From positions 126,666,001 through 126,730,000 of the forward strand of contig OZ024743.1 of NCBI GenBank assembly GCA_964016885.1: a stretch of 64,000 nucleotides of DNA, written 5' to 3'. Below are positions 15,610 through 64,000 of this stretch, piece after piece (the stretch's first letter is position 1; every line of letters starts with the position of its first letter). Source of the stretch: Eledone cirrhosa (taxonomy: Eukaryota). The notes under the pieces are model-generated. The model was not told the DNA's origin and did no database searches. It was given only the letters and a program-made list of their open reading frames with translations. The position numbers were made by a program, and so were the translations under genes.

Positions 15610-16540
<931 letters not shown>

Positions 16541-16684: not shown

Positions 16685-16756
16685 GCGTCGGTGGTGTAAC
16701 GGTTAGCATGGTTGCCTTCCAAGCAGTCGATCCGGGTTCGACTCCCGGCCGACGCA
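16685..16756 (+). tRNA. trnG: tRNA-Gly(TCC), consensus sequence, isolated copy
   Basis: GCGTCGGTGGTGTAACGGTTAGCATGGTTGCCTTCCAAGCAGTCGATCCGGGTTCGACTCCCGGCCGACGCA: full cloverleaf, A and B boxes, TTTT about 11 nt downstream. Confidence 0.97.
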
Positions 16757-30358: not shown

Positions 30359-30430
30359 ATGTCGGTAGTGTAACGGTTAGCATGGTTTCTTTCATAGCAA
30401 TTGTTCGTGGTTCGACACCCGGCCGACTTA
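30359..30430 (+). pseudogene. Highly degenerate tRNA-Gly pseudogene (anticodon position reads TCA)
   Basis: Aligns gap-free to consensus with more than 12 substitutions. Confidence 0.8.
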
Positions 30431-39751: not shown

Positions 39752-41527
39752 TATTTAATTTACTTTTTTATATAGACTCTCTTCAATAAGATTTTACTTA
39801 TTTTATTTTCACAACGATTTCTACTGCATGTGACATGTCTAACGTTTAGACTACCTATATCTGCCTAAATATCAAGTATAAGTAGTTAAGAAAACTATAT
39901 TGAGAACAGAATAATTCGGCACCCTCAGCTGGACAGCATATCTCTGCTACATCTCGAAGACTTGAGGTAAAACTGTCTACTTTACATTCCGATATGAAAT
40001 CACGCCACTGATGCTTTTCATATTTATTGGAGAACCCATACACAAGAAGGATGATATAAAAACGGGTGTTATCGAGAGATTTCTCTACTTGCTCCCTGCT
40101 TGCTCTCTCCCAGAGTCAAAGAGAGCTAGCAGCGTCCTTCTTCCTGGAATTCAATGTAGAGTGTGAGCACGCGCAAAATACACAAGAAATTTGGTGTTTT
40201 GTCTCTGCGAGATGCCCGTTTTCAGTATCCTTGAATGATACAACACATTGGGTAAGGCTTCTTTTGATTTCATTAAGTGGTTATTTCTACTATACACACA
40301 CACTTACACATATATACAAAGTCGAACATATATATAGTTAACACATATGTAATGAATTAACATGTATTAATTCTCGTGAACCATCTTGATATATCATAGA
40401 GGGAGGAGAAGGAGAAAAATGACAGAATTCTGCAAAAAAATTAAAGCAGCATTTTGGGGGTACACAAAGACTTTCTATTGTTTAGAATCTTAAAATGAGG
40501 CATCCGCCTGCATAGTCGTCGGTGGTGTAATGGCTAGCATGGTTTCCTTCCAAGCAGTTGATCCGGGATCGGCTGCCGCATAGGTTTAGCTTTTGATGGA
40601 AATGCTTTGTCTTTTTAATCATAACATTTCTTTGAATTTTATATATAATTCAAATAAGAGAGGGAAAGGACAGGGGTTAAAAACGTCAAATGCTTCTACA
40701 TCAGTTGCGAAATATATCTCAGACACATCTCGTGAACCAAATGACAAACGGCGTACTTTACATTCCGAGATCAAATCCCACCAGTTATGTCGTTGATATT
40801 TATTTGGGATACCATATGCAAGATGGATAACGTGCAGTCGGGGATAATCGCAGAATTTCTCTGTTTACTCAAAAATCCAAGTGAAAAAAATGGCAACATT
40901 TCTACTGGAAACCCAAAGTGGATTGAGGGGACGTAGTAAGAGAATCTTGAAACAACTCTAGAATTGTGGGTTGTTAAGAAAAACAAAAAAAGAAATACAA
41001 CCCACGTATTAATAATGACATCCTTGATCGCTGACATTTACGAGGAGATGAGTAAAAGAAAACGTTAACAAGTCAGGAGGAAAGGTGGTTTACTGTCAGG
41101 ATTTATCTCAATGTGGCTACCTAGGGTTGAGAGTAGAATGCTTCCTCGGACATTGGCAATACACAAAGAGAGAAATTCGTCTTTTATGTTTGCATGTAGC
41201 CCAGCTTGTCTCCCACTAACTAATGTAAGTGTTCAGAACTAGAGATCAACTTGTGTCACCTAGCTCTCATGCCAGAGAGCAATGACAACAGTTGTCTTTT
41301 CTGGCTATCAAAACCCTCCGCATACTAGCCACATAACAGGGCCTGATTTCTGTATCGAGTGATTTTGTGAAGACAACAAAGACCATATAAAATTCTTTGT
41401 TATTCCCAATATTTAACATATTTATATATCATACAGAGAAAAAAACGTATAGAAAACCTGACTGAGTTGAGGGAAAACTTAAAGCAGTAGCTTTGGTAGA
41501 CAGAAAAACTTTGTATTGTACAATATC

Positions 41528-41534
41528 TTTAAAT
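41528..41534 (+). promoter_or_regulatory. TATA-like TTTAAAT at about -27 to -21 of tRNA genes (example copy)
   Basis: Same position upstream of the main array genes and of 30999, and at -26 of the isolated 16685 gene whose flanks are otherwise unrelated. Confidence 0.5.
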
Positions 41535-41554
41535 GATGGGGAAACATCCCAGAG

Positions 41555-41626
41555 GCGTCGGTGGTGTAACGGTTAGCATGGTTGCCTTCTAAGCAGTCGA
41601 TCCGGGTTCGACTCCCGGCCGACGCA
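41555..41626 (+). tRNA. tRNA-Gly body with anticodon TCT (C36T)
   Basis: Single difference from consensus at 41590; A and B boxes and TTTTT intact. Confidence 0.88.
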
Positions 41627-43449
41627 TTTTTAATGTACTTTGTTTATATAGACATTCTTCAATAAGATTTTTCTTATTTTATTTTCACAACGATTTCTAC
41701 TACATGTGACATGTCTAACGTTTTAGACTACCTATATCTGCCTAAATGTCAAGTATAAGTAGTTAAGAAAACTATATTGAGAACAGAATAATTCGGCACC
41801 CTCAGTTGGACAGCATATCTCTGCTACATCTCGAAGACTTGAGGTAAAACTGTGTACTTTACATTCCGATATGAAATAACGCCACTGATGATTTTCATAT
41901 TAAAGACACAAAAAGGATGATATAAAAACGGGTTTTATTGAGAGATTTCTCTACTTGCTCCTTGCTTGCTCTCTGACACAGTCAAAGGGAGCAAGCAGCG
42001 TCCTTCTTCCTGGAGTTCAATGTAGAGTCTGAGCACGAGCAAAATACACAAGAAATTTGGTGTTTTGTCCCTTTGAAGTGACCGTTTTCAGTATCCTTAA
42101 ATGATACAACACATTGGGTATGGCTTCTTTTGATTTCACTAAGTGGTTATTTCTACCGTAAACACACACTTACACATATATACAAAGTCGAACATATATA
42201 TAGTTAACACATATGTAATGAATTAACATGTATTAATTCTCGTGTACAATACATGAACAATACGTGAACATCTCGATATATCATTGAGGGAGAACAAGGA
42301 AAAAAATGAGAGAATTCTGCAAAAAAAAATTAAAGCAACATCTTTGGGGCACACAAAGGCTTTCTATTGTTTAGAATCTTAAAATGAGACAGCGACTACA
42401 TAGGCGCCGATGGTGTAACGCTAGCATGGTTGCATTCTAACCAGTTGATCCGTTTTCAACTCTCGGCGACGCATAGGTTTAGTTTTTGATGGAAATGCTT
42501 TGTCTTTTTAATCATAACATTTCTTTGATTTTTTATATAATTCAAATAAGAGAGGGAAAGGACAGGGGTTAGAAACGTCAAATGCTTCTACATCAGTTGC
42601 GAAATATATCTCAGACACACCTCGTGAACCAAATGACAAACGGCGTACTTTACATTCCGAGATCAAATCCCACCAGTTATATTGTTGATATTTATTTGGG
42701 ATACCATATGCAAGATGGATAACGTGCAGTCGGGGATAATCGCGGTATTTCTCTGTTTACTCAAAAATCCAAGTGAAAAAAATGGCAACATTTCTACTGG
42801 AAACCCAAAGTGGATTGAGGGGACGTAGTAAGAGAATCTTGAAACAACTCTAGAATTGTGGGTTGTTAAGAAAAACAAAAAAAAGAAATACAACCCACGT
42901 ATTAATAATGACATCCTTGATCTCTGACATTTACACGGAGATGAGTAAAAGAAAACGTTAACAAGTCAGGAGGAAAGGTTGTTTACTATCAGGATTTATC
43001 TTAATGTGGCTACCTAGGGTTGAGAGTAGAATGCTTCCTCGAACATTGGCAATACACAAAGAGAGAAACTCGTCTTTTATGTTTGCATGTAGCCCAGCTT
43101 GTCTCCCACTAACTAATGTAAGTGTTCAGAACTAGAGATCAACTTGTGTCCCATAGCTCTCATGCCAGAGAGCAATGACAACAGTTGTCTTTTCTGGCTA
43201 TCAAAACCCTCCGCGTACCAGCCACATAACAGGGCCTGATTTCTGTATCGAGTGATTTAGTGAAGATAACAAAGACCATATAAAATTCTTTGTTATTCCC
43301 AATATTTAACATATTTATATATCATACAGAGAAAAAAAAACGTATAGAAAACTTGACTGAGTTGAGGGAAAACTTAAAGCAGTAGCTTTGGTAGACAGAA
43401 ACATTTTGTATTGTGCAATATCTTTAAATGATGGAGTATCATCCTAGAG

Positions 43450-43521
43450 GCGTCGGTGGTGTAACGGTTAGCATGGTTGCCTTCCAAGCAGTCGATCCGC
43501 GTTCGACTCCCGGCCGATGCA
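43450..43521 (+). tRNA. trnG: tRNA-Gly(TCC) variant, G52C plus C70T (G3-U70)
   Basis: gatccgcgttcga at ~43500 and ccgatgca with T at 43518. Confidence 0.8.
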
Positions 43522-45338
43522 TTTTTAATGTACTTATTTTATATAGACATTCTTCAATAAGATTTTTCTTATTTTATTTTCACAACGATTTCTACTACAT
43601 GTGACATGTCTAACGTTTTAGACTACCTATATCTGCCTAAATATCAAGTATAAGTAAGAAAACTATATTGAGAACAGAATAATTCGGCACCCTCAGCTGG
43701 ACAGCATATCTCTGCTACATCTCGAAGACTTGAGGTAAAACTGTCTACTTTACATTCCGATATGAAATCACGCCACTCATAATTTTCATATTAAAGAGAC
43801 AAAAAGGATGATATAAAAACGGGTTTTATTGAGAGATTTCTCTACTTGCTCCCTGCTTGCTCTCTGCCACAGTCAAAGGGCGCAAGCAGCGTCCTTCTTC
43901 CTGGAGTTCAATGTAGAGTGTGAGCACGAGCAAAATACACAAGAAATTTGGTGTTTTGTCCCTTTGAAGTGACCGTTTTCAGTATCCTTAAATGATACAA
44001 CACATTGGGTATGGCTTCTTTTGATTTCACTAAGTGGTTATTTCTACCGTAAACACACACTTACACATATATACAAAGTCGAACATATATATAGTTAACA
44101 CATATGTAATGAATTAACATGTATTAATTCTCGTGTACAATACATGAACAATACGTGAACAACTCGATATATCATTGAGGGAGAACAAGGAAAGAAATGA
44201 CAGAATTCTGCAAAAAAAAATTAAAGCAACATCTTTGGGGCACACAAAGGCTTTCTATTGTTTAGAATCTTAAAATGAGGCAGCGACTGCACAGGCCTCG
44301 GTGGTGTAATGGCTAGCATGGTTGCATTCCAAGCAGTTGATCCGTTTTCAACTCTCGGCCGACGCATAGGTTTAGTTTTTGATGGAAATGCTTTGTCTTT
44401 TTAATCATAACATTTCTTTGATTTTTTATATAATTCAAATAAGAGAGGGAAAGGACAGGGGTTAGAAACGTCAAATGCTTCTACATCAGTTGCGAAATAT
44501 ATCTCAGACACATCTCGTGAACCAAATGACAAACGGGGTACTTTACATTCCGAGATCAATCCCACCAGTTATGTCGTTGATATTTATTTGGGATACCATA
44601 TGCAAGATGGATAACGTGAAGTCGGGGATAATCGCGGAATTTCTCTGTTTACTCAAAAGTCCAAGTGAAAAAAATGGCAACATTTCTACTGGAAACCCAA
44701 AGTGGATTGAGTGGACGTAGTAAGAGAATCTTGAAACAACTCTAGAATTGTGGGTTGTTAAGAAAAACAAAAAAAGAAATACAACCCACGTATTAATAAT
44801 GACATCCTTGATCTCTGACATTTACGAGGAGATGAGTAAAAGAAAACGTTAACAAGTCAGGAGGAAAGGTGGTTTACTGTCAGGATTTATCTCAATGTGG
44901 CTACCTAGGGTTGAGAGTAGAATGCTTCCTCGGACATTGGCAATACACAAAGAGAGAAATTCGTCTTTTATGTTTGCATGTAGCCCAGCTTTTCTCCCAC
45001 TAACTAATGTAAGTGTTCAGAACTAGAGATCAACTTGTGTCACATAGCTCTCATGCCAGAGAGTAATGACAACAGTTGTCTTTTCTGGCTATGAAAACTC
45101 TCCCCGTACTAGCCACATAACAGGGCCTGATTTCTGTATCGAGTGATTTTGTGTAGATAACAAAGACCATATAAAATTCTTTGTTATTCCCAATATTTAA
45201 CATATTTATATATCATACAGAGAAAAAAACGTATAGAAAACCTGACTGAGTTGAGGGAAAACTTAAAGCAGTAGCTTTGGTAGACAGAAAAATTTTGTAT
45301 TATTCAATATCTTTAAATGATGGGGTAACATCTTAGAG

Positions 45339-45410
45339 GCGTCGGTGGTGTAACGGTTAGCATGGTTGCCTTCCAAGCAGTCGATCCGGGTTCGACTCCC
45401 GGCCGACGCA
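45339..45410 (+). tRNA. trnG: tRNA-Gly(TCC), consensus
   Basis: Perfect match plus TTTTT. Confidence 0.97.
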
Positions 45411-47233
45411 TTTTTAATGTACTTTTTTTATATAGACATTCTTCAATAAGATTTTTTTAATTTTATTTTCACAACGATTTCTACTACATGTGACATGTCT
45501 AACGTTTTAGACTACCTATATCTGCCTAAATATCAAGTATAAGTAGTTAAGAAAACTATATTGAGAACAGAATAATTCGGCACCCTCAGTTGGACAGCAT
45601 ATCTCTGCTACATCTCGATGACTTGAGGTAAAACTGTGTACTTTACATTCCGATATGAAATAACGCCACTGATGATTTTCATATTAAAGACACAAAAAGG
45701 ATGATATAAAAACGGGTTTTATTGAGAGATTTCTCTACTTGCTCCCTGCTTGCTCTCTGCCACAGTCAAAGGGAGCAAGCAGCGTCCTTCTTCCTGGAGT
45801 TCAATGTAGAGTCTGAGCACGAGCAAAATACACAAGAAATTTGGTGTTTTGTCCCTTTGAAGTGACCGTTTTCAGTATCCTTAAATGATACAACACATTG
45901 GGTATGGCTTCTTTTGATTTCACTAAGTGGTTATTTCTACCGTAAACACACACACATATATACAAAGTCGAACATATATATAGTTAACATATATGTAATG
46001 AATTAACATGTATTAATTCTCGTGTACAATACACGAACAATACGTGAACATCTCGATATATCATAGAGGGAGGACATGGAGAAAAAATGACAGAAATCTG
46101 CAAAGAAAAAAATTAAAGCAACATCATTGGGGCACACAAAGACTTTCTATTGTTTAGAATCTTAAAATGAGGCATCCGCCTGCACAGGCGTCGGTGGTGT
46201 AATGGCTAGCATGGTTGCATTCCAAGCAGTTGATCCGTTTTCAACTCTCAGCCGACTCATAGGTTTAGTTTTTGATGGAAATGCTTTGTCTTTTTAATCA
46301 CGACATTTCTTTGATTTTTATATATAATTCAAATAAGAGAGGGAAAGGACAGGCGTTAAAAACGTCAATTTCTTCTACATCAGTTGCGAAATATATCTCA
46401 GACACATCTCGAGAACCAAATGACAAACGGCGTACTTTACATTCCGAGAACAAATCCCACCAGTTATGTCGTTGATATTTGTTTGGGATACCATATGCAA
46501 GATGGAGAACGTGAAGTCGAGGATAATCGCGGAATTTCTCTGTTTACTCAAAAGTCCAAGTGAAAAAAATGGCAACATTTCTACTGGAAACCCAAAGTGG
46601 ATTGAGGGGACGTAGTAAGAGAATCTTCAAACAACTCTAGAATTGTGGGTTGTTAAGAAAAACAAAAAAAGAAATACAACCCACTTTTTAATAATGAAAT
46701 CCTTGATCTCTGACATTTACGAGGAGATGAGTAAAAGAAAACGTTAACAAGTCAGGAGGAAAGGTTGTTTACTATCAAGATTTATCTCAATGTGGCTACC
46801 TAGGGTTGAGAGTAGAATGCTTCCTCGAACGTTGTCAATACACAAAGAGAGAAATTAGTCTTTTATGTTTGCATGTAGCCCAGCTTGTCTCCCACTAACT
46901 AATATAAGTGTTCAGAACTAGAAATCAACTTGTGTCACATAGCTCTCATGCCAGAGAGCAATGACAACAGTTGTCTTTTCTGGCTATGAAAACCCTCCTC
47001 GTACCAGCCACATAAGAGGGCCTGATTTCTATATCGAGTGATTTTGTGAAGATAACAAAGACCATATAAAATTATTTGTAATTTCCAATGTTTAACATAT
47101 TTATATATCATACAGAGAAAAAAACGTATAGAAAACCTGACTGAGTTGAGGGAAAACTTAAAGCAGTAGCTTTGGTAGACAGAAACATTTTGTATTGTAC
47201 AATATCTTTAAATGATGGGATAACATCCTAGAG

Positions 47234-47305
47234 GCGTCGGTGGTGTAACGGTTAGCATGGTTGCCTTCCAAGCAGTCGATCCGGGTTCGACTCCCGGCCG
47301 ATGCA
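47234..47305 (+). tRNA. trnG: tRNA-Gly(TCC) variant, C70T only (G3-U70)
   Basis: Single difference at 47302; TTTTT terminator. Confidence 0.92.
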
Positions 47306-49125
47306 TTTTTAATGTACTTTTTTTATATAGACATTCTTCAATAAGATTTTTCTTATTTTATTTTCACAACGATTTCTACTACATGTGAAATGTCTAACAT
47401 TTTAGACTACCTATATCTGACTAAATGTCAAGTATAAGTAGTTAAGACAACTATATTGAGAACAGAATAATTCGGCACCCTCACTTGGACAGCATATCTC
47501 TGCTACATCTCGAAGACTTGAGGTAAAATTGTGTACTTTACATTCCGATATGAAATCACGCCACTGATGATTTTCATATTAAAGAGACAAAAAGGACGAT
47601 ATAAAAACGGGTTTTATTGAGAGATTTCTCTACTTGCTCCCTGCTTGCTCTCTGCCACAGTCAAAAGGAGCAAGCAGCGTCCTTCTTCCTGGAGTTCAAT
47701 GTAGAGTGTGAGCACGAGCAAAATACACAAGAAATTTTGTGTTTTGTGAAGTGACCGTTTCAGTATCCTTAAATGATACAACACATTGGGTAAGGCTTCT
47801 TTTGATTTCACTATGTGGTTATTTCTACCATAAACACACACTTAAACATATATACAAAGTCGAACATATATATAGTTAACACATATGTAATGAATGAACA
47901 TGTATTAATTCTCGTGTACAATACACGAACAATACGTGAACATCTCGATATATCATAGAGGGAGAACATGGAGAAAAAATGACAGAAGTCTGCAAACAAA
48001 AAAATTAAAGCAACTTCTTTGGGGCACACAAAGACTTTCTATCGTTTAGAATCTTAAAATGAGACATCCGCCTGCACAGGCGTCGGTGGTGTAATGGCTA
48101 GCATGGTTGCATTCCAAGCAGTTTATCCGTTTTCAACTCTCAGCCGACTCATAGGTTTAGTTTGTGATGGAAATGCTTTGTCTTTTTAATCATAACATTT
48201 CTTTGATTTTTATATATAATTCAAATAAGAGAGGGAAAGGACAGGGGTTAAAAACGTCAAATTCTTCTACATCAGTTGCGAAATATATCTCAGACACATC
48301 TCGTGAACCAAATGATAAACGGCGTACTTTACATTCCTAGATCAAATCCCACCAGTTACGTCGTTGATATTTATTTGGGATACCATATGCAAGATGGATA
48401 ACGTGAAGTCGGGGATAATCGCGGAATTACTCTGTTTACACAAAAGTCCAAGTGAAAAAAATGGCAACATTTCCACTGGAAACCCAAAGTGGATTGAGGG
48501 GACGTAGTAAGAGAATCTTGAAACAGCTCTAGAATTGTGGGTTGTTAAGAAAAACATAAAAGATATACAACCCGCGTATTAATAATGACATCCTTGATCT
48601 CTGACATTTACGAGGAGATGAGTAAAAGAAAACGTTAACAAGTCAGGAGGAAAGGTTGTTTACTATCAGAATTTATCTCAATGTGGCTACCTAGGGTTGA
48701 GAGTAGAATGCTTCCTCGGACATTGGCAATACACAAAGAGAGAAATTAGTCTTTTATGTTTGCATGTAGCCCAGCTTGTCTCCCACTAACTAATGTAAGT
48801 GTTCAGAACTAGAGTTAAACTGGTGTCACATAGCTCTCATGCCAGAGAGCAAAGATGACAGTGGTGTTTCTGGCTATCAAAACCCTCCGCGTACCAGCCA
48901 CATAACCGGGTCTGATTTCTGTATCGAGTGAATTTGTGAAGATAACAAAGACCATATAAAATTCTTTGTTATTCCCAATATTTAACATATTTATATATCA
49001 TACAGAGAAAAGAACGTATAGAAAACCTGACTGAGTTGAGGGAAAACTTAAAGCAGTAGCCTTGGTGTAGGCAGAAAAATTTTGTATTATTCAATATCTT
49101 TAAATGATGGTATAACATCCCAGAG

Positions 49126-49197
49126 GCGTCGGTGGTGTAGCGGTTAGCATGGTTGCCTTCCAAGCAGTCGATCCGGGTTCGACTCCCGGCCGACGCA
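49126..49197 (+). tRNA. trnG: tRNA-Gly(TCC) variant A15G
   Basis: gtgtagcggtt, otherwise consensus. Confidence 0.92.
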
Positions 49198-50973
49198 TTT
49201 TTAATGTACTTTTTTTTATAGACATTCTTCAATAAGATTTTTCTTATTTTATTTTCACAATGATTTCTACTACATGTGACATGTCTAACGTTTTAGACTA
49301 CCTATATCTGCCTAAATATCAAGTATAAGTAGTTAAGAAAACTATATTGAGAACAGAATAATTCAGCACCCTCAGTTGGACAGCATATCTCTGCTACATC
49401 TCGAAGACTGGAGGTAAAACTGCGTACTTTACATTCCGATATGAAATCACGCCACTGATGATTTTCATATTAAAGAGACAAAAAGGATGATATAAAAACG
49501 GGTTTTATCGAGAGATTTCTCTACTTGCTCCCTGCTTGCTCTCTGCCACAGTCAAAAGGAGCAAGCAGCGTCCTTCTTCCTGGAGTTCAATGTAGAGTGT
49601 GAGCACGAGCAAAATACACAAGAAATTTGGTGTTTTGTCCCTGTGAAGTGACCGTTTTCAGTATCCTTAAATGATACAACATATTGCATAAGGCTTCTTT
49701 TGATTTCACTAAGTGGTTATTTCTACTATAGACACACACTTACACATATATACAAAGTCGAACATATATATAGTTAACATATATGTAATGAATTAACATG
49801 TATTAATTCTCGTGTACAATACATGAACAATACGTGAACATCTCGATATGTCATAGAGGGAGGACAAGGAGAAAAAATGACAGAATTCTGCAAAAAAGAA
49901 ATTAAAGCAACATCTTTGGCGCACACAAAGACTTTCTATTGTTTAGAACCTTAAAATGAGGCATCCGCCTGCATAGGCCTCGGTTGTGTAATGGCTAGCA
50001 TATGCTTAGTTTTTGATGGAAATGCTTTGTCTTCTTAATCATAACATTTCTTTGATTTTTATATATAATTCAAATAAGAGAGGGAAAGGTCAGGGGTTAA
50101 AAACGTCAAATTCTTCTACATCAGTTGCGAAATATATCTCAGACACATCTCGTGAACCAAATGACAAACGGGGTACTTTACATTCCGAGATCAATCCCAC
50201 CAGTTACGTCGTTGATATTTATTTGGGATACCATATGCAAGATGGATAACGTGAAGTCGGGGATAATCGCGGAATTTCTTTGTTTACTCAAAAGTCCAAG
50301 TGAAAAAAATGGCAACATTTCTACTGGAAACCCAAAGTGGATTGAGTGGACGTAGTAATAGAATCTTGAAACAACTCTAGAATTGTGGGTTGTTAAGAAA
50401 AACAAAAAAAAGATATACAACCCACTTATTAATAATGGCATCCTTGATCGCTGACATTTACGAGGAGATGAGTTAAAGAAAACGTTAACAAGTCAGGAGG
50501 AAAGGTTGTTTACTATCAGAATTTATCTCAATGTGGCTACCTAGGGTTGAGAGTAGAATGCTTCCTCGGACATCGGCAATACACAAAGAGAGAAATTCGT
50601 CTTTTATGTTTGCATGTAGCCCAGCTTGTCGCCCACTAACTAATGTAAGTGTTCAGAACTAGAGATCAACTTGTGTTACATAGCTCTTATGCCAGAGAGC
50701 AATGACAACAGTTGTCTTTTCTGGCTATCAAAACCCTCCGCGTACTAGCCACATAAGAGGGCCTGATTTCTGTATCGAGTGATTTTGAGAAGATAACAAA
50801 GACCATATACTATTCTTTGTTATTCCCAATATTTAACATATTTATATATCATACAGAGAAAAAAACGTATAGAAAACCTGACTGAGTTGAGGGAAAACTT
50901 AAAGCAGTAGCTTTGGTAGACAAAATCATTTTGTATTGTACAATATCTTTAAATGATGGGAAACATCCCAGAG

Positions 50974-51045
50974 GCGTCGGTGGTGTAACGGTTAGCATGG
51001 TTGCCTTCCAAGCAGTCGATCCGGGTTCGACTCCCGGCCGACGCA
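50974..51045 (+). tRNA. trnG: tRNA-Gly(TCC), consensus
   Basis: Perfect match plus TTTTT. Confidence 0.97.
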
Positions 51046-52865
51046 TTTTTAATGTACTTTGTTTATATAGACATTCTTCAATAAGATTTTTCTTATTTTA
51101 TTTTCACAACGATTTCTACTACATGTGAAATGTCTAACATTTTAGACTACCTATATCTGACTAAATGTCAAGTATAAGTAGTTAAGACAACTATATTGAG
51201 AACAGAATAATTCGGCACCCTCACTTGGACAGCATATCTCTGCTACATCTCGAAGACTTGAGGTAAAATTGTGTACTTTACATTCCGATATGAAATCACG
51301 CCACTGATGATTTTCATATTAAAGAGACAAAAAGGACGATATAAAAACGGGTTTTATTGAGAGATTTCTCTACTTGCTCCCTGCTTGCTCTCTGCCACAG
51401 TCAAAAGGAGCAAGCAGCGTCCTTCTTCCTGGAGTTCAATGTAGAGTGTGAGCACGAGCAAAATACACAAGAAATTTTGTGTTTTGTGAAGTGACCGTTT
51501 CAGTATCCTTAAATGATACAACACATTGGGTAAGGCTTCTTTTGATTTCACTATGTGGTTATTTCTACCATAAACACACACTTAAACATATATACAAAGT
51601 CGAACATATATATAGTTAACACATATGTAATGAATGAACATGTATTAATTCTCGTGTACAATACACGAACAATACGTGAACATCTCGATATATCATAGAG
51701 GGAGAACATGGAGAAAAAATGACAGAAGTCTGCAAACAAAAAAATTAAAGCAACTTCTTTGGGGCACACAAAGACTTTCTATCGTTTAGAATCTTAAAAT
51801 GAGACATCCGCCTGCACAGGCGTCGGTGGTGTAATGGCTAGCATGGTTGCATTCCAAGCAGTTTATCCGTTTTCAACTCTCAGCCGACTCATAGGTTTAG
51901 TTTGTGATGGAAATGCTTTGTCTTTTTAATCATAACATTTCTTTGATTTTTATATATAATTCAAATAAGAGAGGGAAAGGACAGGGGTTAAAAACGTCAA
52001 ATTCTTCTACATCAGTTGCGAAATATATCTCAGACACATCTCGTGAACCAAATGATAAACGGCGTACTTTACATTCCTAGATCAAATCCCACCAGTTACG
52101 TCGTTGATATTTATTTGGGATACCATATGCAAGATGGATAACGTGAAGTCGGGGATAATCGCGGAATTACTCTGTTTACACAAAAGTCCAAGTGAAAAAA
52201 ATGGCAACATTTCCACTGGAAACCCAAAGTGGATTGAGGGGACGTAGTAAGAGAATCTTGAAACAGCTCTAGAATTGTGGGTTGTTAAGAAAAACATAAA
52301 AGATATACAACCCGCGTATTAATAATGACATCCTTGATCTCTGACATTTACGAGGAGATGAGTAAAAGAAAACGTTAACAAGTCAGGAGGAAAGGTTGTT
52401 TACTATCAGAATTTATCTCAATGTGGCTACCTAGGGTTGAGAGTAGAATGCTTCCTCGGACATTGGCAATACACAAAGAGAGAAATTAGTCTTTTATGTT
52501 TGCATGTAGCCCAGCTTGTCTCCCACTAACTAATGTAAGTGTTCAGAACTAGAGTTAAACTGGTGTCACATAGCTCTCATGCCAGAGAGCAAAGATGACA
52601 GTGGTGTTTCTGGCTATCAAAACCCTCCGCGTACCAGCCACATAACCGGGTCTGATTTCTGTATCGAGTGAATTTGTGAAGATAACAAAGACCATATAAA
52701 ATTCTTTGTTATTCCCAATATTTAACATATTTATATATCATACAGAGAAAAGAACGTATAGAAAACCTGACTGAGTTGAGGGAAAACTTAAAGCAGTAGC
52801 CTTGGTGTAGGCAGAAAAATTTTGTATTATTCAATATCTTTAAATGATGGTATAACATCCCAGAG

Positions 52866-52937
52866 GCGTCGGTGGTGTAGCGGTTAGCATGGTTGCCTTC
52901 CAAGCAGTCGATCCGGGTTCGACTCCCGGCCGACGCA
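52866..52937 (+). tRNA. trnG: tRNA-Gly(TCC) variant A15G
   Basis: Duplicate of the 49126 copy. Confidence 0.92.
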
Positions 52938-54714
52938 TTTTTAATGTACTTTTTTTTTATAGACATTCTTCAATAAGATTTTTCTTATTTTATTTTCACA
53001 ATGATTTCTACTACATGTGACATGTCTAACGTTTTAGACTACCTATATCTGCCTAAATATCAAGTATAAGTAGTTAAGAAAACTATATTGAGAACAGAAT
53101 AATTCAGCACCCTCAGTTGGACAGCATATCTCTGCTACATCTCGAAGACTGGAGGTAAAACTGCGTACTTTACATTCCGATATGAAATCACGCCACTGAT
53201 GATTTTCATATTAAAGAGACAAAAAGGATGATATAAAAACGGGTTTTATCGAGAGATTTCTCTACTTGCTCCCTGCTTGCTCTCTGCCACAGTCAAAAGG
53301 AGCAAGCAGCGTCCTTCTTCCTGGAGTTCAATGTAGAGTGTGAGCACGAGCAAAATACACAAGAAATTTGGTGTTTTGTCCCTGTGAAGTGACCGTTTTC
53401 AGTATCCTTAAATGATACAACATATTGCATAAGGCTTCTTTTGATTTCACTAAGTGGTTATTTCTACTATAGACACACACTTACACATATATACAAAGTC
53501 GAACATATATATAGTTAACACATATGTAATGAATTAACATGTATTAATTCTCGTGTACAATACATGAACAATACGTGAACATCTCGATATGTCATAGAGG
53601 GAGGACAAGGAGAAAAAATGACAGAATTCTGCAAAAAAGAAATTAAAGCAACATCTTTGGCGCACACAAAGACTTTCTATTGTTTAGAACCTTAAAATGA
53701 GGCATCCGCCTGCATAGGCCTCGGTTGTGTAATGGCTAGCATATGCTTAGTTTTTGATGGAAATGCTTTGTCTTCTTAATCATAACATTTCTTTGATTTT
53801 TATATATAATTCAAATAAGAGAGGGAAAGGTCAGGGGTTAAAAACGTCAAATTCTTCTACATCAGTTGCGAAATATATCTCAGACACATCTCGTGAACCA
53901 AATGACAAACGGGGTACTTTACATTCCGAGATCAATCCCACCAGTTACGTCGTTGATATTTATTTGGGATACCATATGCAAGATGGATAACGTGAAGTCG
54001 GGGATAATCGCGGAATTTCTTTGTTTACTCAAAAGTCCAAGTGAAAAAAATGGCAACATTTCTACTGGAAACCCAAAGTGGATTGAGTGGACGTAGTAAT
54101 AGAATCTTGAAACAACTCTAGAATTGTGGGTTGTTAAGAAAAACAAAAAAAAGATATACAACCCACTTATTAATAATGGCATCCTTGATCGCTGACATTT
54201 ACGAGGAGATGAGTTAAAGAAAACGTTAACAAGTCAGGAGGAAAGGTTGTTTACTATCAGAATTTATCTCAATGTGGCTACCTAGGGTTGAGAGTAGAAT
54301 GCTTCCTCGGACATCGGCAATACACAAAGAGAGAAATTCGTCTTTTATGTTTGCATGTAGCCCAGCTTGTCGCCCACTAACTAATGTAAGTGTTCAGAAC
54401 TAGAGATCAACTTGTGTCACATAGCTCTTATGCCAGAGAGCAATGACAACAGTTGTCTTTTCTGGCTATCAAAACCCTCCGCGTACTAGCCACATAAGAG
54501 GGCCTGATTTCTGTATCGAGTGATTTTGAGAAGATAACAAAGACCATATACTATTCTTTGTTATTCCCAATATTTAACATATTTATATATCATACAGAGA
54601 AAAAAACGTATAGAAAACCTGACTGAGTTGAGGGAAAACTTAAAGCAGTAGCTTTGGTAGACAAAATCATTTTGTATTGTACAATATCTTTAAATGATGG
54701 GAAACATCCCAGAG

Positions 54715-54786
54715 GCGTCGGTGGTGTAACGGTTAGCATGGTTGCCTTCCAAGCAGTCGATCCGGGTTCGACTCCCGGCCGACGCA
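54715..54786 (+). tRNA. trnG: tRNA-Gly(TCC), consensus
   Basis: Perfect match plus TTTTT. Confidence 0.97.
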
Positions 54787-56603
54787 TTTTTAATGTACTT
54801 TGTTTATATAGACATTCTTCAATAAGATTTTTCTTATTTTATTTTCACAACGATTTCTACTACATGTGACATGTCTAACGTTTTAGACTACCTATATCTG
54901 CCTAAATGTCAAGTATAAGTAGTTAAGAAAACTATATTGAGAACAGAATAATTCGGCACCCTCAGTTGGACAGCATATCTCTGCTACATCTCGAAGACTT
55001 GAGGTAAAACTGTGTACTTTACATTCCGATATGAAATAACGCCACTGATGATTTTCATATTAAAGACACAAAAAGGATGATATAAAAACGGGTTTTATTG
55101 AGAGATTTCTCTACTTGCTCCTTGCTTGCTCTCTGCCACAGTCAAAAGGAGCAAGCAGCGTCCTTCTTCCTGGAGTTCAATGTAGAGTGTGAGCACGAGC
55201 AAAATACACAAGAAATTTGGTGTTTTGTCCCTGTGAAGTGACCGTTTTCAGTATCCTTAAATGATACAACACATTGGGTAAGGCTTCTTTTGATTTCACT
55301 AAGTGGTTATTTCTACCATAAACACACACTTACACATATATACAAAGTCGAACATATATATAGTTAGCACATATGTAATGAATGCACATGTATTAATTCT
55401 CGTGTACAATACACGAACAATACGTGAACATCTCGATATATCATAGAGGGAGGACAAGGAGAAAAAATGACAGAAGTCTGCAAACAAAAAAATTAAAGCA
55501 ACATCTTTGGGGCACACAAAGACTTTCTATTGTTTAGAATCTTAAAATGAGGCATCCGCCTGCACAGGCCTCGGTGGTGTAATGGCTAGCATGGTTGCAT
55601 TACAAGCAGTTGATCCGTTTTCAACTCTCGGCCGACGCATAGGTTTAGTGTTTGATGGAAGAGCTTTGTCTTTTTAATCATAACATTGTATATATAATTA
55701 AAATAAGAGAGAGAAAAAACAGGGGTTAAAAACGTCAAATTCTACTACATCAGTTGCGAAATATATCTCAGATACATCTCGTGAACCAAATGACAAACGG
55801 CGTACTTTACATTCCGAGATCAAATCCCACCAGTTATGTCGTTGATATTTATTTGTGATACCATATGCAAGATGGATAACGTGAAGTCGGGGATAATCGC
55901 GGAATTTCTCTGTTTACACAAAAGTCCAAGTGAAAAAAATGGCAACATTTCTACTGGAAACCCAAAGTGGATTGAGGGGACGTAGTAATAGAATCTTGAA
56001 ACAACTCTAGAATTGTGGGTTGTTAAGAAAAACAAAAAAAGAAATACAACCCACGTATTAATAATGACATTCCTGATCTCTGACATTTACATGGAGATGA
56101 GTAAAAGAAAACGTTAACAAGTCAGGAGGAAAGGTTGTTTACTATCAGAATTTATCTCAATGTGGCTACCTAGGGTTGAGAGTAGAGTGCTTCCTCGGAC
56201 ATTGGCAATACACAAAGAGAGAAATTCGTCTTTTATGTTTGCATGTAGCCCAGCTTTTCTCCCACTAACTAATGTAAGTGTTCAGAACTAGAGATCAACT
56301 TGTGTCACATAGTTCTCATGCCAGAGAGCAATGACAACAGTTGTCTTTTCTGGCTATCAAAAACCTCCGCGTACTAGCCACATAAGAGGGCCTGATTTCT
56401 GTATCGAGTGATTTTGAGAAGATAACAAAGACCAAATAAAATTCTTTGTTATTCCCAATATTTAACATATTTATATATCATACAGATAATAAAACCTATA
56501 GAAAACCTGACTGAGTTGAGGGAAAACTTAAAGCAGTAGCTTTGGTAGACAGAACAATTTTGTATTATTCAATATCTTTAAATGATGGGATAACGATCCA
56601 GAG

Positions 56604-56675
56604 GCGTCGGTGGTGTAACGGTTAGCATGGTTTCCTTCCAAGCAGTCGATCCGGGTTCGACTCCCGGCCCACGCA
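56604..56675 (+). tRNA. trnG: tRNA-Gly(TCC) variant G30T plus G68C, probably impaired
   Basis: ggtttccttcc and ggcccacgca: mismatches in the anticodon and acceptor stems. Confidence 0.7.
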
Positions 56676-58499
56676 TTTTTAATGTACTTTGTTTATATAG
56701 ACATTCTTCAATAAGATTTTTCTTATTTTATTTTCACAACGATTTCTACTACATGTGACATGTCTAACGTTTTAGACTACCTATATCTGCCTAAATGTCA
56801 AGTATAAGTAGTTAAGAAAACTATATTGAGAACAGAATAATTCGGCACCCTCAGTTGGACAGCATATCTCTGCTACATCTCGAATACTTGAGGTAAAACT
56901 GTGTACTTTACATTCCGATATGAAATAACACCACTGATGATTTTCATATTAAAGAGACAAAAAGGATGATATAAAAACGGGTTTTATTGAGAGATTTCTC
57001 TACTTGCTCCTTGCTTACTCTCTGCCACAGTCAAAGGGAGCAAGCAGCGTCCTTCTTCCTGGAGTTCAATGTAGAGTCTGAGCACGAGCAAAATACACAA
57101 GAAATTTGGTGTTTTGTCCCTTTGAAGTGACCGTTTTCAGTATCCTTAAATGATACAACACATTGGGTATGGCTTCTTTTGATTTCACTAAGTGGTTATT
57201 TCTACCGTAAACACACACACATATATACAAAGTCGAACATATATATAGTTAACATATATGTAATGAATTAACATGTATTAATTCTCGTGTACAATACACG
57301 AACAATACGTGAACATCTCGATATATCATAGAGGGAGGACATGGAGAAAAAATGACAGAAATCTGCAAAGAAAAAAATTAAAGCAACATCATTGGGGCAC
57401 ACAAAGACTTTCTATTGTTTAGAATCTTAAAATGAGGCATCCGCTTGCACAGGCGTCGGTGGTGTAATGGCTAGCATGGTTGCATTCCAAGCAGTTGATC
57501 CGTTTTCAACTCTCAGCCGACTCATAGGTTTAGATTTTGATGGAAATGCTTTGTCTTTTTAATCACAACATTTCTTTGATTTTTATATATAATTCAAATA
57601 AGAGTGGGAAAGGACAGGGGTTAAAAACGTCAAATTCTTCTACCTCAGTTGCGAAATATATCTCAGACACATCTCGTGAACCAAATGATAAACGGCGTAC
57701 TTTACATTCCTAGATCAAATCCCACCAGTTACGTCGTTGATATTTATTTGGGATACCATATGCAAGATGGATAACGTGAAGTCGAGGATAATCGCGGAAT
57801 TTCTCTGTTTACTCAAAAGTCCAAGTGAAAAAAATGGCAACATTTCTACTGGAAACCCAAAGTGGATTGAGGGGACGTAGTAAGAGAATCTTCAAACAAC
57901 TCTAGAATTGTGGGTTGTTAAGAAAAACAAAAAAAGATATACAACCCACGTATTAATAATGACATGATTGATCTCTGACATTTACACGGAGATGAGTAAA
58001 AGAAAACGTTAACAAGTCAGGAGGAAAGGTTGTTTACTATCAGAATTTATCTCAATGTGGCTACCTAGGGTTGAGAGTAGAATGCTTCCTCGAACATTGG
58101 CAATACACAAAGAGAGAAATTCGTCTATTATGTTTGCATGTAGCCCAGCTTGTCTCCCACTAACTAATGTAAGTGTTCAGAATTAGAGATCAACTTGTGT
58201 CACATAGCTCTCATGCCAGAGAGCAATGACAACAGTTGTCTTTTCTGGCTATCAAAAACCTCCGCGTACTAGCCACACAAGAGGGCCTGATTTCTGTATC
58301 GAGTGATTTTGAGAAGATAACAAAGACCATATAATATTCTTTGTTATTCCCAATATTTAACATATTTATATATCATTCAGAGAAAAAAAACCTATAGAAA
58401 ACCTGACTGAGTTGAGGGAAAACTTAAAGCAGTAGCTATGGTAGACAGAACAATTTTGTATTATTCAATATCTTTAAATGATGGGATAACGATCCAGAG

Positions 58500-58571
58500 G
58501 CGTCGGTGGTGTAACGGTTAGCATGGTTTCCTTCCAAGCAGTCGATCCGGGTTCGACTCCCGGCCGACGCA
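58500..58571 (+). tRNA. trnG: tRNA-Gly(TCC) variant G30T
   Basis: One anticodon-stem mismatch. Confidence 0.8.
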
Positions 58572-60388
58572 TTTTTAATGTACTTTTTTTATATAGACAT
58601 TCTTCAATAAGATTTTTCTTATTTTATTTTCACAACGATTTCTACTACATGTGACATGTCTAACGTTTTAGACTACCTATATCTGCCTAAATATCAAGTA
58701 TAAGTAGTTAAGAAAACTATATTGAGAACAGAATAATTCGGCACCCTCAGTTGGACAGCATATCTCTGCTATATCTTGAAGACTTGAGGTAAAACGGTGT
58801 ACTTTACATTCCGATATGAAATAACGCCACTGATGATTTTCATATTAAAGACACAAAAAGGATGATATAAAAACGGGTTTTATTGAGAGATTTCTCTACT
58901 TGCTCCTTGCTTGCTCTCTGCCACAGTCAAAAGGAGCAAGCAGCGTCCTTCTTCCTGGAGTTCAATGTAGAGTGTGAGCACGAGCAAAATACACAAGAAA
59001 TTTGGTGTTTTGTCCCTGTGAAGTGACCGTTTTCAGTATCCTTAAATGATACAACACATTGGGTAAGGCTTCTTTTGATTTCACTAAGTGGTTATTTCTA
59101 CCATAAACACACACTTACACATATATACAAAGTCGAACATATATATAGTTAGCACATATGTAATGAATGCACATGTATTAATTCTCGTGTACAATACACG
59201 AACAATACGTGAACATCTCGATATATCATAGAGGGAGGACAAGGAGAAAAAATGACAGAAGTCTGCAAACAAAAAAATTAAAGCAACATCTTTGGGGCAC
59301 ACAAAGACTTTCTATTGTTTAGAATCTTAAAATGAGGCATCCGCCTGCACAGGCCTCGGTGGTGTAATGGCTAGCATGGTTGCATTACAAGCAGTTGATC
59401 CGTTTTCAACTCTCGGCCGACGCATAGGTTTAGTGTTTGATGGAAGAGCTTTGTCTTTTTAATCATAACATTGTATATATAATTAAAATAAGAGAGAGAA
59501 AAAACAGGGGTTAAAAACGTCAAATTCTACTACATCAGTTGCGAAATATATCTCAGATACATCTCGTGAACCAAATGACAAACGGCGTACTTTACATTCC
59601 GAGATCAAATCCCACCAGTTATGTCGTTGATATTTATTTGTGATACCATATGCAAGATGGATAACGTGAAGTCGGGGATAATCGCGGAATTTCTCTGTTT
59701 ACACAAAAGTCCAAGTGAAAAAAATGGCAACATTTCTACTGGAAACCCAAAGTGGATTGAGGGGACGTAGTAATAGAATCTTGAAACAACTCTAGAATTG
59801 TGGGTTGTTAAGAAAAACAAAAAAAGAAATACAACCCACGTATTAATAATGACATTCCTGATCTCTGACATTTACATGGAGATGAGTAAAAGAAAACGTT
59901 AACAAGTCAGGAGGAAAGGTTGTTTACTATCAGAATTTATCTCAATGTGGCTACCTAGGGTTGAGAGTAGAGTGCTTCCTCGGACATTGGCAATACACAA
60001 AGAGAGAAATTCGTCTTTTATGTTTGCATGTAGCCCAGCTTTTCTCCCACTAACTAATGTAAGTGTTCAGAACTAGAGATCAACTTGTGTCACATAGTTC
60101 TCATGCCAGAGAGCAATGACAACAGTTGTCTTTTCTGGCTATCAAAAACCTCCGCGTACTAGCCACATAAGAGGGCCTGATTTCTGTATCGAGTGATTTT
60201 GAGAAGATAACAAAGACCATATAAAATTCTTTGTTATTCCCAATATTTAACATATTTATATATCATACAGATAATAAAACCTATAGAAAACCTGACTGAG
60301 TTGAGGGAAAACTTAAAGCAGTAGCTTTGGTAGACAGAACAATTTTGTATTATTCAATATCTTTAAATGATGGGATAACATCCTAGAG

Positions 60389-60460
60389 GCGTCGGTGGTG
60401 TAACGGTTAGCAGGGTTGCCTTCCAAGCAGTCGATCCGGGTTCGACTCCCGGCCGACGCA
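60389..60460 (+). tRNA. trnG: tRNA-Gly(TCC) variant T25G
   Basis: ttagcagggttgcc: D-stem terminal mismatch. Confidence 0.8.
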
Positions 60461-62226
60461 TTTTTAATGTACTTTTTTTATATAGACATTCTTCAATAAG
60501 ATTTTTCTTATTTTATTTTCACAACGATTTCTACTGCATGTGACATGTCTAACGTTTCAGACTACCTATATCTGCCTAAATATCAAGTATAAGTAAGAAA
60601 ACTATATTGAGAACAGAATAATTCGGCACCCTCAGTTGGACAGCATATCTCTGCTATATCTTGAAGACTTGAGGTAAAACTGTGTACTTTACATTCCGAT
60701 ATGAAATCACGCAACTGATGATTTTCATATTAAAGAGACAAAAAAGATGATATAAAAACGGGTTTTATCGAGAGATTTCTCTACTTGCTCCCTGCTTGCT
60801 CTCTGCCACAGTCAAAAGGAGCAAGCAGCGTCCTTCTTCCTGGAGTTCAATGTAGAGTGTGAGCACGAGCAAAATACACAAGAAATTTGGTGTTTTGTCC
60901 CTGTGAAGTGACCGTTTTCAGTATCCTTAAATGATACAACACATTGGGTAAGGCTTCTTTTGATTTCACTAAGTGGTTATTTCTACCATAAACACACACT
61001 TACACATATGTACAAAGTCGAACATATATATAGTTAACACATATGTAATGAATGAACATGTATTAATTCCCGTGTACAATACACGAACAATACGTGAACA
61101 TCTCGATATATCATAGTGGGAGGACAAGGAGAAAAAATGACAGAAGTTTGCAAACAAAAAAATTAAAGCAACAGCTTTGGCGCACACAAAGACTTTCTAT
61201 TGTTTAGAATCTTAAAATGAGGCATCCGCCTGCATAGGCGTCGGTTGTGTAATGGCTAGCATAGGCTTAGTTTTTGATGGAAATGCTTTGTCTTTTTAAT
61301 CATAACATTTCTTTGATTTTTATATATAATTCAAATAAGGTCAGGGGTTAAAAACGTCAAATTCTTCTACATCAGTTGCGAAATATATCTCAGACACATC
61401 TCGTGAACCAAATGACAAACGGCGTAATTTACATTCCGAGATCAAATCCCAACAGTTCCATCGTTGATATTTATTTGGGATACCATATGCAAGATGGATA
61501 ACGTGAAGTCGGGGATAATCGCGGAATTTCTCTGTTTACACAAAAGTCCAAGTGAAAAAAATGGCAACATTTCTACTGGAAACCCAAAGTGGATTGAGGG
61601 GACGTAGTAAGAGAATCTTGAAGCAACCCTAGAATTGTGGGTTGTTAAGAAAAACAAAAAAAAGAAATACAACCCACGTATTAATAATGAAATCCTTGAT
61701 CTCTGACATTTACACGGAGATGAGTAAAAGAAAACGTTAAAAAGTCAGGAGGAAAGGTTGTTTACTATCAGGATTTATCTCAATGTGGCTACCTAGGGTT
61801 GAGAGTAGAATGCCTCCTCGGACATTGGCAACACACAAAGAGAGAAATTCGTCTTTTATGTTTGCATGTAGCCCAGCTTGTCTCCCACTAACTAATGTAA
61901 GTGTTCAGAACTAGAGATCAACTTGTGTCACATAGCTCTCATGCCAGTGAGTAATGAGAACAGTTGTCTTTTCTGGCTATCAAAAACCTCCTCGTACCAG
62001 CCACATAACCGGGTCTGATTTCTGTATCGAGTGATTTTGAGAAGATAACAAAGACCATATAAAATTCTTTGTTATTCCCAATATTTAAAATATTTATATA
62101 TCATACAGATAATAAAACGTATAGAAAACCTGACTGAGTTGAGGGAAAACTTAAAGCAGTAGCTTTGGTAGACAGAAAAATTTTGTATTATTCAATATCT
62201 TTAAATGATGGTATAACATCCCAGAG

Positions 62227-62297
62227 GCGTCGGTGGTGTAACGGTTAGCATGGTTGCCTTCCAAGCAGTCGATCCGGTCCGACTCCCGGCCGACGCA
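62227..62297 (+). pseudogene. tRNA-Gly(TCC) with damaged B-box/T-arm
   Basis: gatccggtccgactcc: 1 nt deletion plus T>C. Confidence 0.75.
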
Positions 62298-64000
62298 TTT
62301 TTAATGTACTTATTTTATATAGACATTCTTCAATAAGATTTTTCTTATTTTATTTTCACAACAATTTCTACTACATGTGACATGTCTAACGTTTTAGACT
62401 ACCTATATCTGCCTAAATATCAAGTATAAGTAGTTAAGAAAACTATATTGAGAACAGAATAAATCGGCGCTCTCAGTTGGACAGCATATCTCTGCTATAT
62501 CTTGAAGACTTGAGGTAAAACGGTGTACTTTATATTCCGATATGAAATAACGCCACTGATAATTTTCATATTAAAGCGACAAAAAGGATGATATAAAAAC
62601 AGGTTTTATCGAGAGATTTCTCTACTTGCTCCATGCTTGCTCCCTGCCACAGTCAAAAGGAGCAAGCAGCGTCCTTCTTCCTGGAGTTCAATGTAGAGTG
62701 TGAGCACGAGCAAAATACACAAGAAATTTGGTGTTTTGCCCCTGTGAAGTGACCGTTTTCAGTATCCTTAAATAATACAACACATTGGGTAAGGGTTCTT
62801 TCGATTTCACTAAGTGTTTATTTATACCATAAACACACACTGACACATATATACAAAGTCGAACATATATATAGTTAACACATATGTAATGAATCAACAT
62901 GTATTAATTCTCGTGTACAATACATGAACAATACGTGAACATCTCGATATGTCATAGAGGGAGAACAAGGAGAAAAAATGACAGAATTCTGCAAAAAAAA
63001 AATTAAAGCAACATCTTTGGCGCACACAAAGACTTTCTATTGTTTAGAACCTTAAAATGAGGCATCCGCCTGCATAGGCCTCGGTGGTGTAATGGCTAGC
63101 ATAGGCTTAGTTTTTGATGGAAATGCTTTGTCTTTTTAATCATAACATTTCTTTGATTTTTATATATAATTCAAATAAGGTCAGGGGTTAAAAACGTCAA
63201 ATTCTACTACATCAGTTGCGAAATATATCTCAGACACATCTCGTGAACCAAATGACAAACGGGGTACTTTACATTCCGAGATCAAATCCCACCAGTTACG
63301 TCGTTGATATTTATTTGGGATACCATATGCAAAATGGATAACGTGAAGTCGGGGATAATCGCGGAATTTCTCTATTTACTCAAAAGTCCAAGTGAAAAAA
63401 ATGGCAACATTTCTACTGGAAACCCAAAGTGGATTGAGTGGACGTAGTAAGAGAATCTTGAAACAACTCTAGAATTGTGGGTTGTTAAGAAAGACAAAAA
63501 AAGAAATACAACCCACGTATTAATAATGACATGATTGATCTCTGACATTTACACGGAGATGAGTAAAAGAAAACGTTAACAAGTCAGGAGGAAAGGTTGT
63601 TTACTATCAGAATTTATCTCAATGTGGCTACCGAGGATTGAGAGTAGAGTGCTTCCTCGGACATTGGCAATACACAAAGAGAGAAATTCGTCTTTTATGT
63701 TTGCATGTAGCCCAGCTTTTCTCCCACTAACTAATGTAAGTGTTCAGAACTAGAGATCAACTTGTGTCACATAGCTCTCATGCCAGAGAGCAATGACAAC
63801 AGTTGTCTTTTCTGGCTATCAAAACCCTCCGCGTACTAGCCACATAAGAGGGCCTGATTTCTGTATCGAGTGATTTTTAGAAGATAACAAAGACCATATA
63901 AAATTCTTTGTTATTCCCAATATTTAACATATTTATATATCATACAGATAATAAAACCTATAGAAAACCTGACTGAGTTGAGGGAAAACTTAAAGCAGTA

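Follow-up and report, generated by a model that had tools for sequence, protein, structure and literature searches.

The gene at position 47,234 of the analysed stretch of Eledone cirrhosa DNA (64,000 nucleotides, hereafter the window) is, in the assembly, a tRNA-Gly(UCC) gene in which a single substitution turns the acceptor-stem pair G3-C70 into G3-U70, the main determinant for alanyl-tRNA synthetase (AlaRS). We favour, at a probability of about 55%, the reading that it is a point mutant in a redundant and mutation-laden array, likely transcribed and predicted to be charged in part with alanine. It would then misread as Ala at most a few percent of GGA codons, an error that would be unselected and is likely tolerated. 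The gene and its immediate surroundings comprise the following features.

47207..47213 (+), TTTAAAT, a TATA-like element common to nearly all array units
47214..47233 (+), inner 5' flank, 20 bases that vary more than any others in the array unit
47234..47305 (+), tRNA-Gly(TCC) gene with an intact cloverleaf, its lone change C70T giving G3:U70
47236 (+), G3 of the acceptor stem
47241..47251 (+), presumed A box (internal Pol III promoter), identical to unchanged copies
47267..47269 (+), anticodon TCC, not altered
47284..47294 (+), presumed B box region (G52-C62), identical to unchanged copies
47302 (+), T70, in a CpG (C70-G71) of the majority sequence
47305 (+), discriminator A73
47306..47310 (+), T5 run, likely the Pol III terminator, followed by a T7 run at 47318-47324

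The C>T at 47302 (gene base 69, Sprinzl position 70) is the sole difference between this gene and the majority tRNA-Gly(TCC). Pair and sequence comparison agree on this point and on the resulting G3-U70, as the sequence-only reading had it, and the A73, A and B boxes, upstream TTTAAAT and TTTTT terminator that it described as intact were all located and are the same as in unchanged copies. The segments at 47241..47251 and 47284..47294 are what we take to be the A and B boxes. As assessed by a cloverleaf pair check, there are no mismatched stem pairs, the acceptor stem reading G1:C72, C2:G71, G3:U70 and U4:A69 before A73. ARAGORN and the Rfam model RF00005 both find a glycine tRNA body and an anticodon with C35/C36. 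The RF00005 score is 60.1 bits, compared with 62.5 for unchanged copies and 49.8 for the copy at 43450 described below, and C70T costs the cloverleaf 1.8 kcal/mol. Pair checks and cloverleaf energies were used because minimum free energy folding gave no cloverleaf even for an unchanged copy. In the source genome (G000, 3.0 Gb), U70 occurs in 2 of 39 exact 3' ends, position 70 being C in the 37 others.

The gene is part of a tandem array situated inside a cluster of ~100 kb. Each unit holds one near-intact tRNA-Gly(TCC), most also hold one degenerate copy, and ARAGORN called 19 tRNA genes in the window, 17 of them as Gly(TCC). The relevant parts of the array are listed here.

40555..64000 (+), tandem array of ~1.9-kb units, continuing ~10 kb beyond the window end
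43450..43521 (+), second G3:U70 copy (43518), with G52C (43500) breaking T-stem pair 52:62
45339..45410 (+), unchanged G3:C70 copy between the two U70 copies
46188..46259 (+), degenerate tRNA-Gly copy in the repeat, 10 substitutions
48080..48151 (+), degenerate tRNA-Gly copy in the repeat, 11 substitutions

Seventeen core units were analysed, two divergent end units being left out. Of the 17 core tRNAs, five are unchanged and 12 mutated. C70T is found in two, one of them otherwise intact, and the other lesions are C36T, A15G (twice), G30T (twice), T25G, G22C, C56T, a deletion, or several changes. We also assembled 102 full-length copies from the window and the regions around the best matches (17 of 20 regions held full-length copies or belonged to two clusters). 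This set comprises 22 unchanged copies, nine that are substituted with paired stems, 61 with broken stems and 10 with indels; in the cluster alone, broken stems or indels affect 68 of 85 full-length copies. Across the 102 copies, 119 of 216 possible substitutions occur, some of them alignment noise in degenerate copies, and a dead copy, substituted at 11 positions, carries a third C70T that again gives G3:U70. Because most units carry a plainly dead second tRNA copy, amplification needs no function. Elsewhere in the array, the copy at window 41555-41626 (+) has had its anticodon changed to TCT (C36T, Arg AGA) in a tRNA-Gly body that is not otherwise altered. Having lost a GlyRS determinant, it is likely poorly charged and would be at most a weak reader placing Gly at Arg codons. 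One array unit has an insertion of ~190 bases with a degenerate tRNA-like head, possibly a SINE.

The second U70 copy, at 43450, was confirmed to combine C70T (43518) with G52C (G>C at 43500). Its acceptor stem is paired and followed by A73, and the pair check shows a C52:C62 mismatch. The proposal that the change had been copied within the array is unproven: the flanks of the 47234 and 43450 units differ by 4.7%, the two share no exclusive allele besides U70, and differences 11 bases upstream, at G52 and 15 bases downstream leave only 35 identical bases around the site. Recurrence and a short conversion tract both fit. Descent from a sister unit was rejected, the 47234 unit sharing 11 exclusive alleles with unit 50974 and only U70 with 43450. 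Conversion from a tRNA-Gly(GCC/CCC) gene, whose last 13-14 bases match the variant, would need a tract of <15 bases between unlinked families and is not favoured.

Is the allele beyond what mutation alone would give? The array tRNA has 14 distinct alleles, where spacer rates by base context predict 17.6 (P=0.235), and no tRNA allele is found in more than two units. Across the array, 213 of 379 minor alleles occur in at least two units. Variant-bearing tRNA copies number 17, compared with the 41 that the spacer would predict (as low a value is found in 7% of 142 spacer windows); the array tRNA is thus subject to some purifying selection or homogenisation. Hypermutation of CpG was not seen within the tRNA: 2 of 18 tRNA CpG bases have a transition allele in at least one of the 17 units, compared with 16 of 80 in the spacer. 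From these frequencies, C70T had roughly a 10-20% chance of appearing in the array. The U70 allele is thus not more than chance gives, and within this assembly no conservation or expansion of it beyond background mutation was found, considering that it is in one of 41 intact genes, that its sharing is ordinary and that a dead copy has it too.

Evidence for T70 in reads was taken from three Logan contig sets, which represent one sample, perhaps the source of the assembly, and so are not independent. Contigs were compared over a 52-base stretch spanning the site in the 43450 copy, on which seven pieces were placed. Two of these, from two of the three sets, match the C52+T70 combination of the 43450 type without difference, the X2 piece being 61 bases long at depth 16.1 and the X3 piece 96 bases at depth 27.2. 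To one side of the site each has 30 letters, one fewer than the bridging rule of the comparison demands. Three pieces of high depth (98-164) have two differences, as expected of the majority type (G52+C70), and two end short of the site. RAD run X5 gave no read on the stretch, and X4 and X5 are too thin at the site. The allele that the sequence-only reading took from the assembly is therefore seen in short-read contigs for the 43450 type, whereas the 47234 type (G52+T70) is in none of the seven pieces. T70 at 47302 might then be an assembly or polishing error, or a single-haplotype variant, carried over from the neighbouring 43450 unit, the sole other copy with a U70 3' end, which lies two units away. 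The lack of G52+T70 where C52+T70 and high-depth G52+C70 pieces do occur points in this direction. However, rare variants are lost from contigs, and these likewise lack many other private alleles of the 47234 unit. The unit also has flanks of its own, 3.5-6.6% from all other core units, so that reads are placeable on it, and we regard an error at this base as rather improbable.

Taking T70 as real, signs of transcription can be read from the array. Its inner 5' flank has 13 alleles versus 4.0 expected (P=0.00026), the top of 83 windows compared, and a hypervariable 5' flank is reported to be most divergent in active tRNA genes of human and mouse (PMC6130373). This makes expression plausible, the signal being that of the array as a whole and not of the 47234 unit. 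None of six public sequencing runs is recorded as RNA, which bears on expression in neither direction. Within the tRNA, C>T, G>T and G>C changes on the RNA-like strand number 11 versus 0 mirror changes, compared with 78 versus 78 in the spacer (P=0.0006), in classes picked after viewing the data and with the proviso that selection for G-U pairs could favour C>T. Transcription is expected to give an excess of C>T on the non-template strand (PMC6130373). The idea that C70T was born by CpG deamination is possible, but the tRNA shows no enrichment of CpG transitions, and damage linked to transcription, as suggested by the strand bias, would fit at least as well. In the mechanism that we propose, array tRNAs are transcribed in the germ line and mutate fast there, and redundancy would let damaged copies persist. 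A bacterial promoter scan was set aside, as it does not apply to Pol III.

How such a tRNA would be charged can be judged from known enzymes and from the host genes. G3-U70 is reported as the main AlaRS determinant, and its transplantation to other tRNAs confers alanine acceptance (PMC9976931, PMC6055181). On this the sequence-only reading is biochemically sound, and the host itself keeps G3:U70 in 14 of 15 tRNA-Ala genes found with a pattern that left position 70 free. AlaRS, which ignores the anticodon and charges G3-U70 stems, would be expected to act on the 47234 tRNA as well. Pairs 2:71 and 4:69 are C:G and U:A in this tRNA versus G:C and G:C in all 15 tRNA-Ala, and these differences may lower its alanylation. 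Host cytosolic AlaRS keeps the Asp416 motif and has Ser at the position of human Asn317 (G000:C15:20913059-20913205 (-), L051:1507-1653), one of two residues by which the human enzyme reads G3-U70 (PMC6055181). Position 317 is Ser in 6 of 120 homologues, including the three closest full-length ones, and Asn in 113; being common to the closest homologues, Ser317 is not an assembly error. Human AlaRS N317A is reported to charge G3:U70 normally (relative kcat/Km 0.78) and to let G3:C70 through (PMC6055181), so that Ser317 would not weaken charging of G3:U70.

Glycine would still compete for the same tRNA. Yeast GlyRS reads pairs 2:71 and 3:70, and, according to the same source, no glycine identity set is known for higher eukaryotes (PMC9976931). 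Host GlyRS probably still charges the 47234 tRNA, as it must accept both G3-C70 and A3-U70. The host genome contains DTD and ATD genes with their motifs present. G3-U70 is reported to raise the activity of E. coli DTD on Gly-tRNA-Gly more than tenfold (PMC5409826) and to give ~tenfold discrimination by mouse DTD (PMC6097841). Given this preference, the U70 tRNA would likely lose its Gly to DTD more quickly than normal Gly-tRNA-Gly does, which would shift the charged pool toward Ala. The activity described for ATD concerns G4-U69 (10.1101/123919), which is not present in this tRNA (pair 4:69 is U:A), and we found no editing route for Ala on a G3:U70 tRNA in the literature. On the preferred reading, the 47234 tRNA is likely a dual Gly/Ala acceptor arising from ordinary tRNA mutation load.

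The dose of such an acceptor depends on the other glycine tRNAs. An Rfam family search intended as a genome-wide census gave mostly a tRNA-like repeat and tRNA-Thr, and patterns were therefore used instead. All 81 genes matched by a GCC/CCC pattern were read (66 GCC and 15 CCC). Those with GCC have A3:U70 without exception (66/66), and those with CCC have A3:U70 in 12 cases, G3:C70 in two and G3:U70 in one, so host GlyRS must accept U70. The G3:U70 gene of the CCC family (G000:C4:11787746-11787816 (+), L098:7746-7816) carries A3G, as does the human tRNA-Gly-CCC-1-1 variant; the pair is thus reached by both routes, C70U and A3G, in one genome. About 1-2% of glycine tRNA genes have G3:U70, which is what one-step mutation would give. 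Synonymous anticodon switches also occur, a GCC-type body having TCC at L102 (G000:C4, near 11857800, -) and a TCC-type body having CCC at L112 (G000:C17, near 1017900, +). A TCC-family pattern (intact anticodon and T-arm) gave 43 matches, from which a GCC-type body and an unrelated match were set aside. This leaves the intact U70 gene as one of 41 TCC-family genes, or one of 23 if unchanged genes only are counted, these counts being lower bounds on gene number. Competition with ~40 normal GGA readers would cap the error, so that Ala would be placed at GGA at most ~2-5% of the time, given equal expression and full alanylation. The share would be lower at GGG, because the 15 tRNA-Gly(CCC) genes also serve that codon. 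The significance as a Gly-to-Ala mistranslator that had been implied for these copies is not supported by a single intact gene among 41, a second copy with a damaged T stem and an array full of random lesions.

Three other readings accept the base and depart from ours in what becomes of it. The copy could be silent, i.e. real but not transcribed, degraded or a poor AlaRS substrate, with no measurable Ala at Gly codons. Most copies in the cluster are dead, human tRNA genes are classed as inactive in 254 of 596 cases (PMC6130373), C2:G71 and U4:A69 are unlike native tRNA-Ala, and the cloverleaf is weakened by C70T, all of which give this reading some weight. It is opposed by an internal promoter, TTTAAAT and T5 run that are identical to those of unchanged copies, by the flank signature, which suggests that array units are transcribed, and by the report that a human G3-U70 tRNA-Gly mistranslates in cells (PMC11212642). 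We consider silence possible but on the whole unlikely.

It is highly improbable that U70 is instead under selection as a regulated Gly-to-Ala mistranslator and owes its copying within the array to that role. This reading draws on the double occurrence of U70, on the G3:U70 tRNA-Gly(CCC) as a third such glycine tRNA, and on the Ser at Asn317 of host AlaRS, since loss of human Asn317 relaxes 3:70 selectivity (PMC6055181). Against it, shared minor alleles are the majority in the array, one of the two copies is damaged, their units are not sisters and the allele has not expanded; the same change is found in a dead copy, and its frequency among glycine tRNA genes is that of one-step mutation. Scarcely less doubtful is a loosened Gly/Ala boundary, in which Ser317 would let normal G3-C70 tRNA-Gly(UCC) be slightly alanylated, and G3-U70 UCC and CCC tRNAs would persist, and be expressed, as a lasting source of Gly-to-Ala variation. 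We therefore retain the low-dose, unselected point mutant as the preferred reading.

The phenomenon itself is already published for humans. Berg et al. (2019) describe six G3:U70 tRNA-Gly variants in people, two of them in high-confidence genes, at allele frequencies of ~1% and 5% (PMC6779403). In mammalian cells, such human variants are reported, in a review by the group that tested them, to insert Ala at Gly codons with no significant toxicity (PMC11212642, PMC11415595; Hasan et al. 2023 as described in PMC11212642). Like the 47234 gene, they are natural, arise by one substitution and belong to multicopy families. The 47234 gene differs in that a UCC isoacceptor gets the pair by C70U from G3-C70, in an invertebrate tandem array; by analogy, it likely works like the human variants at low dose. 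The same G3:C70 to G3:U70 change makes E. coli tRNA-Lys C70U an Ala-charged alanine missense suppressor (1984; PMC11212642), although that is a laboratory-selected, bacterial lysine tRNA. A yeast tRNA-Pro G3:U70 suppressor, another non-Ala tRNA, is tolerated at ~3-6% Ala misreading (PMC6779403, PMC11212642), but is a proline tRNA that was selected or engineered. The tRNA-Thr(G4-U69)/ATD system (10.1101/123919, PMC7302879) likewise has a non-Ala tRNA charged by animal AlaRS via a G-U pair, and the host has an ATD gene; it differs in having its pair at 4:69, in being widespread and in its dedicated editing, whereas the 47234 tRNA has U4:A69 and G3:U70.

The array also shares with transcription-associated tRNA mutation load (PMC6130373) a 5' flank hypervariable over 20 bases and, in multicopy families, a wealth of rare alleles that are damaged or change identity, except that variation here is between paralogous units of one assembly and not between individuals. 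Rare isotype-switch alleles of nematodes have been attributed to such load (PMC13010820). In the main texts of the open-access literature, we found no earlier report of a G3-U70 tRNA-Gly in invertebrates or in this lineage; supplementary tables of the ATD papers could hold genome-wide lists of non-Ala tRNAs with G3-U70. If expressed, the gene would be a natural and testable Gly-to-Ala misreader in an invertebrate, and would show that variants like the human ones arise generally as by-products wherever tRNA families are large. It leaves our view of the genetic code unchanged, the ceiling being a few percent of one codon, and Asn317Ser in AlaRS is a more unusual lead than the U70 tRNA.

Several other tRNA-like elements were noted. 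Dispersed tRNA-like repeats with scrambled anticodons (GGC, AGC, GAC, GTC, GGT) and no G3:U70 (L025, L027-L035) form what is probably a tRNA-derived SINE family called tRNA-Ala by ARAGORN. The copy at window 30359-30430 and six related ones derive from tRNA-Gly, have TCA as anticodon and are degenerate, with 13-17 substitutions and broken stems; they are pseudogenes rather than UGA suppressors. After the 1.9-kb array comes a second tandem repeat of ~6.5 kb (G000:C4:126740000-126778000, L002-L005), whose unit contains ~ten tRNA-Gly-derived pieces on both strands, at most one of them unchanged. Finally, an (AT)n microsatellite of 919 bases (window 15622-16540) ends 145 bases upstream of an unchanged tRNA-Gly(TCC) at 16685.
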